DNA of 22,845 bases from a virus (IMGVR_UViG_3300020171_000017:112685-135529); one strand, 5' to 3'. Positions 1 through 16,816 are shown, counted from the stretch's first letter. Notes: a model not told the origin generated them from the sequence alone. Numbers and translations are program-made.

Positions 1-197
1 TACCTTAACTTTACTACAATTTCTCCCATCCACACTGACTCTCAGAGAGGAAAAGAACTTGGGAAGCATTCTTTACATCTTTTCGGGCTACCACGCCCAG
101 AGAATTCAGTTACTATCTGTGTAGTCAATTGTTTAACCTGTTAAGACGATTGGTCTTCTCTTTTACAAGCCCCTATTTTTAAATAGGGGTTATTGAC
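1..197 (-). ncRNA. IscB-type omegaRNA (HEARO-like) scaffold at an IS200/IS605-family element end; the nuclease ORF would lie left of the window
   Basis: Minus strand begins GTCAATAACCCCTATTT-AA-AAATAGGGGCTTG (typical terminal hairpin), then TTGACTAC...AACTGAA...GGGCGTGGTAGCCCGAAAAGATGTAAAGAATGCTTCCCAAGTTCTTTTCCTCTCTG...AGTCAGTGTGGATGGGAG, which resembles IscB-associated omegaRNAs. Recognised by eye, no covariance model run. Confidence 0.7.
166..197 (-). mobile_element. IS200/IS605-type terminal hairpin (element end at 197)
   Basis: 9-bp stem CCCCTATTT (170-178)/AAATAGGGG (181-189) flanked by ACAAG and TTATTGAC on the plus strand. Confidence 0.7.
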
Positions 198-294: not shown

Positions 295-1479
295 TCATTT
301 TTTCACATTCATATTTTTATAAAACTCCACCGCCTTTTTGTTCGCCTTAATCAAATTTTGCCTTAAATTTTTTACTGAAAGGCCTGCTTTGGTGCGAACT
401 CTACTCAAAGCTACATATGCTTGACCGCACTCGAAAGTACCTCTGAAATCGATACAGACCTTGTCTAAACTTAATGATTGTGATTTATGGATACTAATGG
501 CATATGCTAATCGTAAAGGTATTTGTGATCGAGAAGCTAATTCAATTTTATCATCCATGATTTTCGCTACGGTTTCATATCCTAAATCTAATGAGATATC
601 GTTATCAAACTTAACCGTGACAGTTTTGCCTATTATCTCTGCGACATTACCTATCGAACCGTTAATTAAACTTAGATCTATATATTTGTTAATTAATAGC
701 ATAACTCTTGCTCCGACTTTTAAATACAGATTTTTAGGTACGAGGCAATTCTTGTCGATAGAAGCTTTATGGTATTCGCTACCACTATCTCTAGCCTCGA
801 AATGATAGATTTGACCTTTAAGTTCAGCAAGTTTAGCTTCGTTAAATTTATCCGCAGGATAATTTAGAGCGAATAAATGTAGTGCGTCATCGTGTTTAGC
901 TGTCGACACAATATCAACAGCTTCACCAAAACGAATCTTATTAAGATCATTCAGAAAATCCACATCATTTTGTCGAAACTGCTCTTCTAAAAGCACAGTT
1001 TGGAAATTAGCTTCTTGCCAAGAGATGCTTTCGAAAGCGAACTTAACTTCTTTACCTTCTTTTTCGACTGGTGGTAGTTGTAGAAAATCGCCAATAACTA
1101 TTAGTTGTATTCCGCCGAAAGGATCGTCATTACGTTTAAGGATTTTAAATACATCGTTGATGAGATCTAGGGTATCGGCACTCAACATAGAGATTTCATC
1201 TATGGCTAAACGACGGCAATAAGAAATACGTGATCTTTGTTCGGTATGCATCGAATAAGCAATCTGGTTGGCTGATCTTTCACCGATTCCGATTCCCGAA
1301 AATGAATGGATGGTTGAACCACCTACATTGATTGCTGCAACGCCTGTTGACGCGGTAACTATAAGATCAGGTAAGTCTTGTTGCAATTTGTTGAGATAAA
1401 AGGACTTTCCTGTGCCAGCATTTCCAGTAATAAAGACATTCTTGTCTGATTGGATAAGAGATAAGATTTTTGTATACAT
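295..1479 (-). CDS. pif1: Pif1/RecD-like SF1B DNA helicase
   Basis: GNAGTGKS (Walker A), IDEISML, GDFLQLPPV, QIPLRLAYAISIHKSQ, GQAYVALSRV. Confidence 0.93.
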   Translation of the reverse strand: MYTKILSLIQSDKNVFITGNAGTGKSFYLNKLQQDLPDLIVTASTGVAAINVGGSTIHSFSGIGIGERSANQIAYSMHTEQRSRISYCRRLAIDEISMLSADTLDLINDVFKILKRNDDPFGGIQLIVIGDFLQLPPVEKEGKEVKFAFESISWQEANFQTVLLEEQFRQNDVDFLNDLNKIRFGEAVDIVSTAKHDDALHLFALNYPADKFNEAKLAELKGQIYHFEARDSGSEYHKASIDKNCLVPKNLYLKVGARVMLLINKYIDLSLINGSIGNVAEIIGKTVTVKFDNDISLDLGYETVAKIMDDKIELASRSQIPLRLAYAISIHKSQSLSLDKVCIDFRGTFECGQAYVALSRVRTKAGLSVKNLRQNLIKANKKAVEFYKNMNVKK

Positions 1480-1500
1480 TTACATTGTTATCCTTTTTAA

Positions 1501-1790
1501 TTTAAAGTAGGTGCGTGAAGTGGCAATGGCTCTAAAGGCAGATAAGTTTTATCTGTAACAATTAATTAAAAGTCTTCAAACGCATCTACTTTAAAGTGTT
1601 ATTAAAATTCTTGAAAGGATAGAAGTGACAACCTTGAAAAAGTCAGATAATTTTTATCTGTAACAGCACATTCGAAGTCTTCAATATCCTCTCAAGAATT
1701 ATATATAAATCGATCAGTGGAAGTGACATTGTCCATGAAGTCAGATAATTTTATCTGTAACAAACAAATGGAAGTCTTCAACACTGATCG
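1501..1790 (-). repeat. TIGR-like stem-loop array, 3 units, each with two 9-nt variable spacers
   Basis: Units 1711-1790, 1606-1700 and 1501-1595. Minus-strand core: UUGAAGACUU-N9-UGUUACAGAUAAAA(A)UUAUCUGACUU-N9-UGUCACUUC (unit 1501-1595 has a few substitutions). Each core is closed by its own unrelated 9-16 bp stem. Spacer pairs: CCAUUUGUU/CAUGGACAA, CGAAUGUGC/UUUCAAGGU, UUAAUUAAU/UAGAGCCAU. Confidence 0.9.
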
Positions 1791-1796
1791 TTGAAT

Positions 1797-2834
1797 TTAA
1801 AAAAAACTTTCAATTCCGTTTTGTTTATCTATTGCTTTTCCTAACAATAAACTAGTTTCTGATTTTTTTGTGATATCAAAATCTTTAAATTTAAAATATA
1901 TTTCTTTGCATAATAAAGTAGATATTTTATTCCTGGCACAGGCATTTGCGTAGCCATCAAAACTTAAATCTTTCCAGCCTTTTGATCTGCGTTGTTCGTT
2001 AAATTTTTCATGTTTTAATTTAAAGGCATCTGAGTTAAGATAATTTTCCCGCATAGACCTATAGATCGGTTCATAAACTTGATTTTCTTGTAGTAGCATT
2101 TGCCCTGTGCATTGATAGAACAAAGATTTTGCCTGGCGATTATATACTTGGTCTGATTTACTACCATTTTTACCGATATAACCACAGTATTTTAAATATT
2201 TTCTTACATTACTGAATAAAAAAGGTGTTGCTGTAATTAAAATTCTGCCAATTAATCTAAACCCTATACCACGTATGTTTAAAAATTCTTTATATAATGA
2301 AAAATATTTATCCATTTTTTGACCCATTAAATCTCGTTGAAAATTAATTGCTTTTAAACTCATTTTCAAGTCACGTAATTGATCTTTAATATTCTCATTG
2401 GGGTATTCACGTTCAAGAGCTAATAAATTTAGTTGTCCACGCACGCTTGTTTTTTCTAGTAAAGAATAGTTATTCTCAATGATTTTTAATGGTAAAAGAG
2501 AAATAGATAAAAGATTAAAATCTATAACTTCTATTTTATTGTTTAATATTGCATAACGTAAGAATAAGGCATCATTAGTATCAGTTTTTAAATAATTAGT
2601 ATTTTTTAGATCATGCAATTTTTTGCTATCAACTAAAAAAATCTGGACACCTGATTTTAATAATACGATTAATTGTTTTTTTGGACAACCTGTTTCTGAA
2701 TACAGAATATCGTTGGGCAAGATAATTGTATTAAGTTCTGCCCAATCAACTTCCAGGATTACCTCATCATTATTCTTACAAACCGCCAATTTTTTTATAT
2801 TTTCATGCGCCCAGTCGATATAATATGTATTCAT
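1797..2834 (-). CDS. tasR: TasR-like RNA-guided nuclease (IS110-type DEDD RuvC domain + coiled coil + Nop-like RNA-binding domain)
   Basis: D7 (YYIDW), E47 (SETG) and D85/D88 (KTDTNDA) form the IS110/RuvC tetrad. IRGIG...FSNVRKYLKYCGY...YNRQAKSLFY matches the IS110 C-terminal/Nop-like region with a short loop. The dual-spacer array starts 6 nt after the stop. Confidence 0.8.
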   Translation of the reverse strand: MNTYYIDWAHENIKKLAVCKNNDEVILEVDWAELNTIILPNDILYSETGCPKKQLIVLLKSGVQIFLVDSKKLHDLKNTNYLKTDTNDALFLRYAILNNKIEVIDFNLLSISLLPLKIIENNYSLLEKTSVRGQLNLLALEREYPNENIKDQLRDLKMSLKAINFQRDLMGQKMDKYFSLYKEFLNIRGIGFRLIGRILITATPFLFSNVRKYLKYCGYIGKNGSKSDQVYNRQAKSLFYQCTGQMLLQENQVYEPIYRSMRENYLNSDAFKLKHEKFNEQRRSKGWKDLSFDGYANACARNKISTLLCKEIYFKFKDFDITKKSETSLLLGKAIDKQNGIESFF

Positions 2835-2850
2835 AGTTTAGTTCCTTTTT

Positions 2851-2961
2851 TTATTTACATTTTAGATATAACGTATCGTTTTTATCATATATAACCGTTA
2901 TATCAATCAACCTGCCTTCTTTATAGATGAACCATTCGCACAAGTGTATAGTAATATTCAC
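2851..2961 (-). CDS. possible 36-aa ORF (GTG start overlapping the upstream stop)
   Basis: MNITIHLCEWFIYKEGRLIDITVIYDKNDTLYLKCK; GTGA overlap with the upstream ORF. Confidence 0.3.
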   Translation of the reverse strand: MNITIHLCEWFIYKEGRLIDITVIYDKNDTLYLKCK

Positions 2962-5380: not shown

Positions 5381-7054
5381 TTAATCTCCTAACATTTCTA
5401 GCAATGTATCTTTATCTAATGCAACGCCCAGCTCTTCTTCAATAATCGTATCTTCTCGAAATAAAATTTTGCTGGCTTTTTGTTTATTTTCTAAAATCTT
5501 GAGCCAGTGCCCGTCAACCGTATCCTTCGCCAGTAGCCTGATAATAACCACGTTTTTTGTCTGGCCAATTCGGTGATTCCTGGCTTCGGCCTGAATAACC
5601 GTTGACGGAGACAAGAAACTCAAATCTGTGAACACAGCCACATTGCCGGCGTGCAAAGTAATACCCATACCGCCTGTTTGCACGGTACCGATGATGATTT
5701 TGCAGTTAGGATCGGTCTGAAAGCGGTTAATGTTTTTATCTTTTTCTTCTGCTGACATACCGCCCCAAAAGAAAGCGCAGTTATACGTAACGGTTTCGCC
5801 ATTATATTTAAAGCCTTCAGTATAGCGTTTATAAATATATGCGGTAAACGCACGAAACCTAGTCCAGATAACTATTTTATTGCCTGAAGATAATACCTCA
5901 TCGATAATATCGTCAAGTGCTTTTACTTTCGGGTTTTCTTTATAAAACATAGGCTGGTTAAGTTTCACATCAGTAATAAACCCGCAAGTCAGTTGCGATA
6001 ACCGCAGCATTTGAGTTAAGATACCATTAGCCTTCGCGATTACATCTTCATTAGACATGTTTTTTATAGTTACCTTCATCTCTTCTTTCATTGTAGTATA
6101 AGCCCTTAGTAAATCTCCTGAAAGCAAAGTTTCCCGCTCTTCATATGTCTTTTCAGGCAAGTCTAAAGTCTCACTTGCTAACCTGCGGATAAAATACGGT
6201 TCGAGTTTTTTCTTTAATTCATCCAAATTCTTATACCCCACCACTTTTTTAAAACTAGGTGCTTCCCATTCAGGAGTTACACAGCAACAAGTATAAATTT
6301 TAGCATATCTTTGTTCAGGCGACCATTTTCCGCAGCATTTACATTTTCTGCCTTTACTTGATTTTTTACTTTCCTCTGTTTCGTGTAGTTTTATGGTAAT
6401 AGTCTCGACATATTTATCAAAGAAACTCCAATACGAGCCAAGATACCCAGGCTTTAACCAATCGAATTGCGACCAAACATCAATAATTTTGTTCGCCGCT
6501 GGGTACCCTGTTATGGCTATTTTATACTTAAAAGGAATTTTTTTTAATTCCTTGGTACGTTTAGAATCTCTGGTTTTTATATAAACACTCTCGTCAATTA
6601 TGCATAAGGAATTAATAGAAAACTTTAACAAATAACCGCTATCTTTAAGTAATTGCTCATAATTCATAATAAGATAAAAAACATCTTCCCTCGTTAAAAA
6701 GGTAAAATAAGTTTCTTCCCTTTTTTTCATACTTCCATCAACAACCAGGCATTTCTCGTCGGTAAACTTTTCAATTTCACGTTTCCAAACGGAATACTTA
6801 GTAGTTGCTGGACACACAATCAGGCATTTTTTAATTTCGCCTTTTTGTTTACGTAATAAGGATAAACCTAATGATTGTAAGGACTTGCCAAGTCCGAGCT
6901 GATCCGCGAGCATTGCAGTATCAAGGTTAAGAAGGTAGTTTATTCCTGTTTTTTGGTGATTGAATAAAGTAGCCTTTAATTGTGGCACTTCAATCGTACA
7001 ATCAGGCAAAGCTTTTAACGCTAAAAGTTTCTTTTCAAACTCAGAATATTCCAT
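5381..7054 (-). CDS. SNF2-family helicase/translocase with Cys-rich insertion
   Basis: LADQLGLGKS, CPAT, IDES, ITGYP, QLTCG, TGGMGITL, QAEARNHRIGQ motifs. Confidence 0.92.
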   Translation of the reverse strand: MEYSEFEKKLLALKALPDCTIEVPQLKATLFNHQKTGINYLLNLDTAMLADQLGLGKSLQSLGLSLLRKQKGEIKKCLIVCPATTKYSVWKREIEKFTDEKCLVVDGSMKKREETYFTFLTREDVFYLIMNYEQLLKDSGYLLKFSINSLCIIDESVYIKTRDSKRTKELKKIPFKYKIAITGYPAANKIIDVWSQFDWLKPGYLGSYWSFFDKYVETITIKLHETEESKKSSKGRKCKCCGKWSPEQRYAKIYTCCCVTPEWEAPSFKKVVGYKNLDELKKKLEPYFIRRLASETLDLPEKTYEERETLLSGDLLRAYTTMKEEMKVTIKNMSNEDVIAKANGILTQMLRLSQLTCGFITDVKLNQPMFYKENPKVKALDDIIDEVLSSGNKIVIWTRFRAFTAYIYKRYTEGFKYNGETVTYNCAFFWGGMSAEEKDKNINRFQTDPNCKIIIGTVQTGGMGITLHAGNVAVFTDLSFLSPSTVIQAEARNHRIGQTKNVVIIRLLAKDTVDGHWLKILENKQKASKILFREDTIIEEELGVALDKDTLLEMLGD

Positions 7055-7309: not shown

Positions 7310-8779
7310 TTAATTAATTTGGTTTAACCTTTCAAGTCCAGCTTCAGCAATAAACTGTTTACTTGTAGTTAATATATATTCTTTACTGCGCAAGAAAGGA
7401 AAGATCATTTCTTCAAGAGTATCTCTATCGATATCGCATGTACCTGCCAATGTTTTAATACCCATACCTTTAGGGTATCTTGCCAGAGTAGATAAGACCT
7501 TTAAATCAATTTCAGTCAAGCCGTCTGGCTCTATTTTTTGAGTAGCCATTTCCTCTTGCACCGTAACGGTACTGATACTTTTTTCATGTTTATACACAGA
7601 CCTGTCTCGGCAAGCCATTAGATACCCTATCACCACACGAGGCACGCCGCGCGCGCGTTTAGCAATTTCAAGTACCGCTTCTTTTTCAATCGGTATTTCC
7701 TCTTTTTCAGAATTAAATTGAATAATTTTCACCAAATCGTTGACAGAGTAGGATTTCAAGTAACATGATAAAGGCAACCTATCTCTTAAAGGTTTTTTAA
7801 GTGTGCCTGGGTTTGTAGTAGCGCCGATGATCGTAAAAGGCAACCGCGTGCCGATAATATTAGCCGTAAGTATACAATCTACTCCATCAACTAACACCTT
7901 TGTTCCTGATAAACTTGAATAGAAGATATGAGATTCCATTAAAGAAAAGAACATTTCATCAGGCATTTCCTTACTGGAAAGTTTATGTATCTCATCAAAA
8001 AAAAGAATAGCGTTCTTACCTGATTCCTGAATAAGATCTATTTCACGCATAGCGAAATACAAATCTTTTTGCGAACCGATTGAGCCGCCGGTGCGCTGTA
8101 CGCAGATAGAGTCCATTTCGTTAGCGATTATCTGTGCTAGAGTGGTTTTACCAGTATTATGTGTAATAATCCAATCATTAGTTATGTACCAACCACTAGG
8201 AGAATTAAGTGTAAATCCGTAAACCATTTCTTTTTTATTCTCTGGGGTGACAAACATTGATTTTATCCTTACATTCTTCCATTTAGTAGAGAATTCAATA
8301 GCAGAAGCAAAAATTCCGAATTTATTTCCTATATTTGAAAACTCGCCTGCTGGAACATTTACATAGCTATTACAAGATACACATTTACAAACTAAAAGAT
8401 GTTCTTTAGCAACACGGTATTCTCCATAATTAATTTTTCTAATAACTCCAGATTTCCTTTTACCAACAACAACTTTATAGATATTTGATATATATTTTTT
8501 AGTGTCTAGTACTGTCGCTATAACAGTAGTGTCATCTGATTGAGGAGAAAAGACTTGGTCGCCTTTTTTAATTAACTCAACATTTTTCCATTTCCCATTA
8601 GCCATCAAAACTTTTTGTCCTTTAGGTTGGCATCCAGCCTGGCCATATAACAGAATATTAGGTAACATAGTTGAACGTGCTTTAGCTGAAACGATAGCGA
8701 TACGCAGCCTTTCTACCGTATCTTTGTTAGTTTCTCCTTGAAACTCTTCAAGTGTTGTCGGTCTCATTAGATTTTCCAC
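7310..8779 (-). CDS. ruvB: Holliday junction branch-migration ATPase RuvB, intein-containing
   Basis: RPTTLEEFQG, split Walker A GQAG|TGKTT, FFDEIH, IGATT...PLRDRL, ARGVPR. Confidence 0.9.
   Translation of the reverse strand: MENLMRPTTLEEFQGETNKDTVERLRIAIVSAKARSTMLPNILLYGQAGCQPKGQKVLMANGKWKNVELIKKGDQVFSPQSDDTTVIATVLDTKKYISNIYKVVVGKRKSGVIRKINYGEYRVAKEHLLVCKCVSCNSYVNVPAGEFSNIGNKFGIFASAIEFSTKWKNVRIKSMFVTPENKKEMVYGFTLNSPSGWYITNDWIITHNTGKTTLAQIIANEMDSICVQRTGGSIGSQKDLYFAMREIDLIQESGKNAILFFDEIHKLSSKEMPDEMFFSLMESHIFYSSLSGTKVLVDGVDCILTANIIGTRLPFTIIGATTNPGTLKKPLRDRLPLSCYLKSYSVNDLVKIIQFNSEKEEIPIEKEAVLEIAKRARGVPRVVIGYLMACRDRSVYKHEKSISTVTVQEEMATQKIEPDGLTEIDLKVLSTLARYPKGMGIKTLAGTCDIDRDTLEEMIFPFLRSKEYILTTSKQFIAEAGLERLNQIN
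8156..8632 (-). mobile_element. 159-aa mini-intein in the RuvB P-loop
   Basis: Starts CQPKGQKVLMANG, ends WIITHN, followed by Thr(+1). No LAGLIDADG motifs seen. Confidence 0.9.
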
Positions 8780-9725
8780 TGTACATTTTTTGCTCTACCT
8801 TCATTGCGGCTTTACTAATGAAGTTAGGTGATACGCTCACATATCTATCAAGTTGCGAGAATGAACTCCAACCCATTATCGCGCGTAACGCGTGAATATC
8901 ACCGCCTGATTCTATCCATCTGGTACAAAAAGTATGGCGTGCGAGATGCGAACCGTAAGGCTTGTTCCATGAGTTCTTATAAGGAAACGCTACATCAATA
9001 ATATTTTTCATCGCATAATAAACATAATCACGCCGCAATGGCTTGCCCCAGTGGTTAAAGAAGATATTGCTGATAGGTGAAGGATACTTGATTAAGTAAG
9101 ATTCTAACACTTCTTTAGTGCGTTTTGATATAGGCACACGTCTTTCTCTATACTTACCCTTTACGTCTTCTTTTGGCAAGAAGATCAACCTTTTTTCAAG
9201 ATCGATATTTTCTTTTTTAATTGAGATGATTTCTTTCGCGCGCAGGCCTGAAGTTATCGCGATATAGAAGAGTAACTTTTCTCTTAATTCAATTAAAGGA
9301 CCTTCAACCGCTTTTAACAGTAAACGTATCTCTTTAAGTGTTATAGTGCGATAAGTACCTCCACTGCCGTTTGGCGGTGATTTCAATCCTTTAGCTGGGT
9401 TCTTCGCGTCATCAAGGTAACGTTCTAATACCAAGAACTTAAAGAAAGTTTTTAGCTTTACGATAGCTAATTGAAGAGTAGTAATACTCTTCCAACGGCC
9501 GTCGGTTTTCTTTTTAATGATATAATTGCGTAGATCGGTAGTGGTAACTTCTAGTAATGATTTATCAATATCATTTAAAATCATAACAAAGAATCGTTGC
9601 CAGTTGTAAATAGTTACAGGGCTAAGTAACGCTATAGAACTGAGATATGCTTCGGTAAGTTGTTTATTCGACCAAGTTGGCGGTGTTGGTATTGTTTGGT
9701 TTTGATTCAAGATTTCATTTTCCAT
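8748..9725 (-). CDS. tyrosine recombinase (XerC/D/integrase-like)
   Basis: SGLRAKE (R), HLARH (HxxR), MGW, DRY (catalytic Y); N-terminal SAM-like domain. Confidence 0.92.
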   Translation of the reverse strand: MENEILNQNQTIPTPPTWSNKQLTEAYLSSIALLSPVTIYNWQRFFVMILNDIDKSLLEVTTTDLRNYIIKKKTDGRWKSITTLQLAIVKLKTFFKFLVLERYLDDAKNPAKGLKSPPNGSGGTYRTITLKEIRLLLKAVEGPLIELREKLLFYIAITSGLRAKEIISIKKENIDLEKRLIFLPKEDVKGKYRERRVPISKRTKEVLESYLIKYPSPISNIFFNHWGKPLRRDYVYYAMKNIIDVAFPYKNSWNKPYGSHLARHTFCTRWIESGGDIHALRAIMGWSSFSQLDRYVSVSPNFISKAAMKVEQKMYSGKSNETDNT

Positions 9726-11318: not shown

Positions 11319-11418
11319 AATTTACAAGACATTACATAACAGAACCATAATTTATTTTACGTGACTTTACTTCACTTCATCGTAAAACACTTTAAAGTAC
11401 TTGATCTTAATTTACATT
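11319..11418 (-). repeat. 5-nt-period array 2 (20 pentamers NNN(G)T)
   Basis: aatgt aaatt aagat caagt acttt aaagt gtttt acgat gaagt gaagt aaagt cacgt aaaat aaatt atggt tctgt tatgt aatgt cttgt aaatt. T at position 5 in 20/20, G at position 4 in 12/20. Confidence 0.85.
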
Positions 11419-16600: not shown

Positions 16601-16816
16601 CTAACAATTCTGTTTCGCTAATTCTTTACTCATACGTTCGAGTAGATTTTCCATTCTCTCAATCACATTTTTATCTACCTCAATACATGTTTGTTTTCCT
16701 TTTTCACTATAGTCATATTTATTGGATAGCAAATCATTTAACGCTTCTTTTCTAAGTTCAATTCCTGCATGTAATGATTCTCGTAATGTAAATAGTTCTT
16801 CAATGTTTAATTTCAT
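16601..16816 (-). CDS. hypothetical protein
   Basis: 71 aa ORF with AAGGAG RBS. Confidence 0.65.
   Translation of the reverse strand: MKLNIEELFTLRESLHAGIELRKEALNDLLSNKYDYSEKGKQTCIEVDKNVIERMENLLERMSKELAKQNC

Follow-up and report, generated by a model that had tools for sequence, protein, structure and literature searches.

TIGR-Tas systems were first described in 2025, in a paper that already reported stem-loop arrays with two 8–12-nt spacers and variable palindromes (PMC12045711). Work on the stem-loop branch has since made known its CUU/UG boxes, the restriction of conservation to a few stem bases beside the boxes, its hairpin-forming loops, the absence of the Y/H loop from all stem-loop clades, and the carriage of TIGR-Tas by phages (Xu et al. 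2026, bioRxiv 10.64898/2026.09.09.750476). In the two stem-loop TasRs solved in that work, PateTasR and CsTasR, catalytic residues are substituted; neither protein cleaves, and both repress transcription, R91 of PateTasR being a residue that blocks the DEDD pocket, and the authors extend inactivity and repression to stem-loop binders generally (bioRxiv 10.64898/2026.09.09.750476). All proteins obtained to date from the stem-loop branch are nuclease-dead, and its natural targets and spacer dynamics are unrecorded.

Here we describe a locus that we read, with good confidence, as a complete stem-loop-array TIGR-Tas system carried as an accessory cassette by an uncultured groundwater phage of 135 kb. 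It is a variant within the known family, and its function is predicted. The source genome is one 135,529-nt virus record with 33.9% G+C, and the window, the whole stretch of DNA analyzed here (22,845 nt), is its last 22.8 kb. DNA of the phage is present in groundwater metagenomes from several studies. The cassette sits in a minus-strand block of phage replication genes, where a Pif1/Dda-like helicase gene (295–1479, minus strand) borders the array and the other minus-strand neighbors encode an SNF2-type helicase, a clamp loader, a tyrosine recombinase, a DNA methyltransferase and a ParB-like protein. Searches of GenBank phages returned neither a DNA nor a protein match to the locus, and a search of IMG/VR returned zero TasR relatives.

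The predicted TasR protein and its catalytic site

The tasR coding sequence (1797–2834, minus strand, stop codon included) encodes a protein of 345 amino acids, P0001, that as a single query matched nothing in Pfam, including the IS110 models (PF02371), or among PDB sequences. A word-indexed protein search recovered three close relatives, and an exhaustive HMMER search with a three-sequence profile recovered 127 related cluster representatives, 88 of them full-length. The family profile built from a 48-sequence alignment of those relatives matches TaTasR (PDB 9MTY) end to end (profile positions 4–293 against 8–295, E 9e-45) and TasH over the Nop part (E 1.6e-24). An AlphaFold2 model made from the same 48-sequence alignment (pLDDT 90.2, pTM 0.83) starts with an RNase-H-like domain, continues into a long helical hairpin and ends in a C-terminal domain of helices, and Foldseek ranks 9mty_A first (E 1e-10, TM 0.73), followed by IS621, ISCro4 and TasH, with a probability of 1.00 for the matches to TasR and TasH. 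The NCBIfam model TIGR_Tas_endo (NF052498) covers residues 142–283 at E 1e-9 with 38.7 bits against a cut-off of 100, and the NCBIfam IS110 model reaches only E 2e-4.

Homology to Tas proteins is seen by profile, by Foldseek and, below the cut-off, by NCBIfam, and sequence and model identify the protein as a TasR with three parts. The RuvC-like (DEDD) domain (approximately residues 1–106; 2517–2834, minus strand) has the predicted fold topology β1–3/α/β4/α/β5. The coiled-coil helical hairpin (residues 108–185; 2280–2513, minus strand), presumed to be the dimerization element, consists in the AlphaFold model of helices 108–143 and 147–185, both with pLDDT >90, and aligns with the 9MTY coiled coil. 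The Nop-type C-terminal RNA-binding domain (approximately residues 186–320; 1875–2279, minus strand), assigned from the TasH profile match, leads into a short tail that has no Y/H loop. Because P0001 falls below the NCBIfam cut-off and matches none of the Pfam IS110 models, it is a divergent TasR that is invisible to standard annotation.

The same comparisons bear on a second reading, in which the protein is an IS110-type RNA-guided recombinase whose bridge RNA joins element ends to a target. Fold and profile do resemble IS621 and ISCro4 (E 6e-8, TM ~0.55), Pfam DEDD_Tnp_IS110 is matched by 22 of the 48 relatives, and the cassette is polymorphic for presence and absence between phages. We nevertheless consider a recombinase very improbable. 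The profile match to IS621 spans only positions 55–223 (E 6e-8, with IS621/ISCro4 at ~E 1e-7, partial), whereas the match to TaTasR is end to end with an E-value 37 orders of magnitude better; the loop bearing S225 and S227 is modeled at pLDDT ~64, aligns with gaps and lacks conservation across the family, so that there is no catalytic-serine domain; the array has three dual-spacer units in tandem, where a bridge RNA would be a single RNA with two loops; and the guides differ from the empty site and the cassette flanks by at least seven mismatches at best. An earlier note on this DNA, made from the sequence alone, had proposed a comparison with TasR, IS110 and Nop5, and that comparison places TasR best, IS110 as a partial match and Nop5 far lower. 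The note was also right about the C-terminal motifs: YCGY lies at 216–219 and YNR at 231–233, and S225 and S227 are among the 11 residues that separate the two. The IS110 recombinase with element ends and a bridge RNA that it had named as the contrary outcome is not what we found.

The DEDD tetrad D7/E47/D85/D88 claimed in the earlier note is present, and in the HMMER alignment all four acidic residues align with the active-site residues D11/E43/D87/D90 of TaTasR. The profile motif iyiDWa aligns with LAVDWS of TaTasR such that D7 corresponds to D11, the residue whose replacement in the D11A mutant abolishes cleavage (PMC12045711). The tetrad is kept in 71 of the 88 full-length relatives (81%), and in the remaining 17 at least one of the four residues is missing or replaced at the aligned positions. 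The last 45 residues of P0001 contain no LGH-type ([LIVMF]GH) motif, and the same is true of 86 of the 88 relatives; the LGH-type tail, which in dual-repeat systems bears the Y/H tigRNA-processing dyad, occurs in two. As judged from these aligned residues, the clade fits the rule that stem-loop TasRs have no Y/H loop and departs from the rule that their RuvC domain is dead.

We find it probable on this basis that the RuvC domain is catalytically active. Because the tetrad is intact and conserved in the clade, an intact RNA-guided nuclease is likely the best reading of the protein, and it is in this sense that we infer nuclease activity. The main competitor is a TIGR-TasR with a dead or silent nuclease that binds its 18-bp targets and blocks transcription or replication. 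Both characterized stem-loop TasRs are inactive repressors, a behavior that their authors generalize, and the CUU/UG box motif of the phage units is the same in PateTasR. An intact tetrad does not prove activity, and a steric block like that of PateTasR R91 may occur here as well. Against this reading, the acidic residues that are replaced in PateTasR and CsTasR all align with those of active TaTasR in the phage protein, the 81% retention of the tetrad in the clade would be unexpected without selection for catalysis, and the sign of self-regulation, a guide match in the phage genome, is absent. We therefore regard a silent nuclease as a serious but unlikely alternative to a cleaving one.

Stem-loop tigRNA units and their covariation

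Downstream of tasR, the minus strand carries three units of 80–95 nt (n = 3), the first beginning 6 nt past the tasR stop and the last reaching ~300 nt. Unit 1 (1711–1790) has a 9-bp distal stem and a GAAG/CUUC inner stem, with spacer A (CCAUUUGUU) at 1763–1771, the central hairpin at 1742–1757 and spacer B (CAUGGACAA) at 1729–1737 (fold z −3.17). Unit 2 (1606–1700) has a 16-bp distal stem that includes G-U pairing, with spacer A (CGAAUGUGC) at 1666–1674, the central hairpin at 1644–1660 and spacer B (UUUCAAGGU) at 1631–1639 (fold z −4.73). Unit 3 (1501–1595) has a distal stem of 15 bp and one mismatch, with spacer A (UUAAUUAAU) at 1561–1569, the central hairpin at 1539–1555 and spacer B (UAGAGCCAU) at 1526–1534 (fold z −4.00). 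All of these features lie on the minus strand. Each unit reads in the same order, starting with one half of the distal stem, UU, GAAG, A, CUU, the 9-nt spacer A and UG-UUA, continuing through CAGAUAA, a loop of 2–3 nt and UUAUCUG, which form a 7-bp central hairpin, and then A or C, and ending with CUU, the 9-nt spacer B, UG-YCA, CUUC and the strand that completes the distal stem. A conserved 4-bp GAAG/CUUC stem extends each closing stem, and the folds beat shuffled sequences in every unit (rounded z −3.2, −4.7 and −4.0) and over the whole array (z −5.25).

A regular-expression scan of the 135,529-nt genome for CTT-N9-TGNNN-CAGATAA-N2–3-TTATCTG-N-CTT-N9-TGNNN returned three matches, all on the minus strand, at 1724–1774, 1626–1677 and 1521–1572 of the window, and the CAGATAA...TTATCTG hairpin is confined to the three units in the whole genome. 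A relaxed scan of the genome for CUU-N8–10-UK twice with a closing stem found no further convincing unit, and no Rfam family matches the units. With CUU-N9-UG twice per unit beside tasR and edge sequences that vary yet are always palindromic and kept as pairing, the three units downstream conform to the published design of stem-loop tigRNAs, with CUU as box C and UG as box D. The CUU...UG boxes read, as in published stem-loop tigRNAs, only on the gene strand, which is for this reason predicted to be the RNA strand. A box C/D snoRNP composed of Nop5 and a snoRNA was considered and rejected, since only CUU/UG stands where RUGAUGA/CUGA is expected and Nop5 (3nmu) reaches E 0.3, far below TasR.

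Several relatives of the protein lie beside arrays of their own. Two loci with 57% protein identity carry seven clear units, flanking tasR on either side at distances of up to 2.8 kb (L001), and at least six units (L154); a third with 33% identity carries four units with a 5-nt AAAAU loop in place of the hairpin (L002), and a fourth carries one unit (L006). The relatives' units lie on the gene strand and hold CUU constant before every 9-nt spacer, while stems, loop hairpins and spacers all differ. For 16 aligned units from three loci, both the closing stem and the loop hairpin emerge from the RNAalifold prediction, and 10 of the 14 pairs show compensatory changes. Paired cells amount to 92.7%, against 72% in shuffled alignments (none of 500 shuffles reaches the observed value) and 34–51% when the partner strand is slid, and the covariation score is 0.60 against 0.22.

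These results bear out the earlier note's description of the array, with one small correction and one addition. Its six spacers, all of 9 nt and all different, are recovered by the genome scan, as is the shared central CAGAUAA/UUAUCUG hairpin, found only in the three units. The motif GACUU-N9-UGUYA, said to occur twice per unit, holds in five of six half-sites and fails in the last half-site of unit 3, which reads GCCUU-N9-UGCCA. The closing stems fold as the note described, with 9 bp, 16 bp (including G-U) and, where the note counted 16 bp, 15 bp and one mismatch, and the inner GAAG/CUUC stem is a feature that the note leaves out. The covariation that the note had seen within one locus is upheld and gains statistical support from the 16 units of three loci. 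Its identification of a stem-loop TIGR-TasR system agrees with the evidence from profile, fold and array, and the nuclease activity that it also proposed is, in our reading too, a prediction.

The hairpins could in principle be ordinary terminators or regulatory palindromes that neighbor an unrelated nuclease gene by chance. The region is intergenic, where hairpins are common, and one terminator-like site lies near the array at 1309–1323, with no outstanding promoter or terminator found around the array. Yet the internal design, with its two variable segments of 9 nt, is exactly alike in the three units, U-tracts are absent from them, the design recurs with compensatory changes beside homologous proteins on unrelated contigs, and the units match a published RNA class, so that a chance association is scarcely credible. 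We conclude that the locus is very probably a genuine TIGR-TasR guide system.

In the mechanism that we propose, the array would be co-transcribed with tasR from the minus strand and trimmed to units of ~80–95 nt by a host RNase, which we invoke because this TasR lacks the Y/H self-processing loop. A TasR dimer would bind one unit through its two CUU/UG box pairs, and the two spacers would each pair with a different strand of an 18-bp DNA site, perhaps with a gap of 0–2 bp and without a PAM. Each RuvC domain would then nick its own strand to produce a staggered double-strand break.

Target searches and variation between samples

We searched for targets in the geometry given by TaTasR tigRNA1 and its ssDNA target, in which the target strand reads as spacer A followed by the reverse complement of spacer B. 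The 3′ overhangs of TaTasR, the failure of its reverse-complemented guides and its tolerance of 1–2 bp gaps fit that geometry (PMC12045711). In this functional geometry, the phage genome contains no site with fewer than four mismatches to any guide pair, and the best sites, with 4–5 mismatches, are at chance level. A 17/18 match at genome position 70947 has a geometry not used by reverse-complemented TaTasR guides and is probably due to chance (p ~0.002 per test, six tests). Because no guide matches the phage's own genome, the role of the system is likely attack on or exclusion of other DNA, belonging to competing mobile elements or to the host, rather than self-regulation.

The relatives' guides do not match this phage, and targeting between phages was rejected after 22 guide pairs from the locus and its relatives gave no match at ≤1 mismatch to the phage sequences searched. 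Homing was likewise rejected, the guides having at least seven mismatches to the cassette-less junction and its flanks. Exact target scans of viral contigs gave few matches, all unrelated, and a metagenome scan for GACTT-N9-TGTTACAGATAA gave at least 120 matches with a full unit in none, all of which we attribute to chance. In exact-match scans of 185,579 species genomes with four guide pairs, the pairs of unit 2, unit 3 and a variant unit 3 allele from run X4 (described below) gave 26, 64 and 10 matches, all unrelated.

The unit 1 guide pair behaved differently in the same species genomes, with at least 120 matches, and among the 120 listed, 83 fall at the same site, whose gap is CC or CT, within one gene in Flavobacteriales and other Bacteroidota. 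The gene is rseP (Pfam Peptidase_M50; TIGR00054 above cut-off), which encodes a RIP site-2 metalloprotease, and the pair exactly matches CCATTTGTT-CY-TTGTCCATG ~240 nt into the gene in the spacer A–gap–reverse complement of spacer B geometry, with the 2-nt gap at a wobble position. The Flavobacterium rseP site reads CATGGACAA-RG-AACAAATGG. In an even sample of 401 Bacteroidota genomes, the rseP-type site is exact in 5 and present with one mismatch in 6, and all other matches are no commoner than those of a reversed-pattern control. No other guide matches rseP loci convincingly. As a rough estimate, the probability of a chance coincidence with a clade-conserved site, given four guide pairs tested, is ~0.01–0.05.

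Signals of the host were sought in the phage itself. The phage shows no enrichment of the Bacteroidota −7 motif or of sigma-70 promoters, its Shine-Dalgarno-like signal is moderate, and look-alikes of its capsid and integrase are scattered over mixed phyla. The host signals do not favor Bacteroidota, and for this reason the rseP match is kept as a lead: from the sequence match, we think it doubtful that the unit 1 guide pair is aimed at host rseP. If it were, and such a host is the one that the phage infects, a TIGR guide would for the first time have a natural target assigned to it, and a phage with a nuclease-competent stem-loop TasR would cut or silence a conserved host envelope-stress gene; spacer replacement between near-identical phages would in that case suggest retargeting.

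Such replacement was observed when contigs from four groundwater runs were compared with the locus, as single contigs at a likeness of ≥80%. Run X2, from another study, is identical over the covered part, and run X4, from a third groundwater study, contains a phage variant of ~90% similarity. In unit 3 of the X4 variant, spacer A differs at 5 of its 9 bases and spacer B at 7 of 9, which makes 12 of 18 in all. The scaffold around them is kept, with the boxes, the inner stem and the distal stem preserved (one G-C pair becoming G-U), and the central hairpin is remodeled and still paired.

The whole tasR and array cassette, 1,368 nt at 1480–2847, is missing from one X4 contig, in which position 1479 is joined to 2848 with one letter between them (depth 7.9, shorter side 75 nt). 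On these single contigs, tasR and its array form an accessory 1.4-kb cassette that is present or absent between related phages. A copy of AAUGUAAAU at 1478–1486 (minus strand) overlaps the start of the helicase gene, and its twin at 2853–2861 (minus strand) lies upstream of tasR. The window contains 5 copies of AAUGUAAAU where 0.9 are expected, so the motif bracketing the cassette, instead of being a target-site duplication, may be a regulatory element that recurs.

Comparison with known systems

In the TIGR-Tas literature that we examined, we found no stem-loop TasR with an intact, clade-conserved tetrad. The supplement of the 2025 paper names an 'active RuvC' group (PMC12045711) that may include stem-array members. 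P0001 and the clade motifs do not occur in the covered part of Table S1 of that paper (PMC12045711), a result of little weight. Natural targets are likewise missing from the literature examined, as are records of spacers replaced between near-identical genomes. The comparison of samples gives a rare natural view in which the guide scaffold stays constant, spacers are replaced and the cassette comes and goes, and this sizeable clade may supply effectors that are compact (345 aa), PAM-free, nuclease-active and equipped with self-folding guides.

IS110 elements, represented by IS621 (PDB 8WT6), share with the phage protein a DEDD RuvC-like domain, a coiled coil and a Nop-like RNA-binding core, and in both, short paired guide segments sit in loops of the guide RNA. 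IS621 alone has a C-terminal Tnp domain of the serine-recombinase type and a single bridge RNA that reads donor and target. PlTasA, from a Peromyscus gut contig (Faure 2025; Guan et al. 2026, bioRxiv 10.64898/2026.08.11.744272), offers a parallel for the array, as its stem-loop units are expressed and processed singly; it differs in being a TasA without a nuclease domain and in having an array of 13 units in three sub-arrays.

TaTasR, the dual-repeat effector of a Thermoproteota archaeon (Faure et al. 2025, PMC12045711), shares the RuvC, coiled-coil and Nop architecture at a similar length (331 aa against 345 aa) and aligns in all four acidic active-site residues, with ~15% identity in the Foldseek structural alignment. 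Both systems have two 9-nt spacers per guide with a UG box D after each, and PAM-free targeting of two strands is expected of both. They differ in box C, which is CCA in TaTasR and CUU in the phage, and in guide architecture. TaTasR guides are 36 nt long and are cut from the dual-repeat array by the protein's own C-terminal Y/H loop, which the phage TasR lacks, whereas each phage guide has its own variable closing stem of 9–16 bp and a loop hairpin.

PateTasR and CsTasR from Patescibacteria (bioRxiv 10.64898/2026.09.09.750476) share with the phage locus stem-loop tigRNAs, symmetric CUU/UG boxes and variable stems, conservation of sequence near the boxes only, and a processing loop that is short or absent. 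CsTasR guides also share the inter-spacer hairpin of the phage units, and PateTasR is similar in size (329 aa). PateTasR and CsTasR come from CPR bacteria and have substituted catalytic residues, whereas the TasR described here is carried by a phage and retains a tetrad that is intact and conserved across its clade.

A repeated 9-mer and other features of the window

The tasR cassette (window 1480-2847), which is absent from one related contig, is bracketed by two copies of the 9-mer AATGTAAAT at 1478-1486 and 2853-2861. Both lie on the minus strand, as do those at 6337-6345 and 11410-11418, and a plus-strand copy at 16785-16793 brings the window count to five versus 0.9 expected. In this phage, AATGTAAAT may serve as a recurring motif, either of promoters or for recombination.

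The phage tyrosine recombinase (8748-9725, minus strand) has many XerD-like relatives of approximately 300 amino acids with 52-58% identity, some on long contigs of up to 100 kb. These relatives might be useful for host placement; the look-alike clusters are of mixed taxa. At the window start (17-197, minus strand), a match to Rfam HEARO (RF02033), the IscB-associated omega RNA, spans the full model length and scores 33.3 bits (E 2.4e-4), far under the Rfam gathering score of 83.

tigRNA units in a related contig

In contig L001, which encodes a TasR relative with 57% identity, the tigRNA units do not make up a single array but are interspersed with other genes. At L001 6455-6798, one unit lies 1.4 kb downstream of tasR and directly precedes a gene with a Tad2-like domain (PF11195, anti-Thoeris).

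Matches to the unit-1 and unit-3 guide pairs

With a 2-nt gap, the unit-1 target equals a conserved coding site (...ESMDKEQM...) in rseP, a RIP site-2 metalloprotease gene, of Flavobacteriales and relatives, found at L185 5910-7253 and at least about 80 other Bacteroidota loci (L182-L300); we treat this match as a lead only.

The unit-3 guide pair has a near-match in the phage's own DNA at genome positions 70947-70964, outside the window and 41.7 kb ahead of its start. This site lies 93 nt beyond the 3′ end of the phage's tmRNA gene. Self-matches at this level arose in approximately 0.2% of shuffled-spacer trials per test, with six tests made. The match covers 17 of 18 positions and is present only in reverse geometry, unusable by the characterized dual-repeat TaTasR, whose target strand reads spacerA followed by the reverse complement of spacerB.
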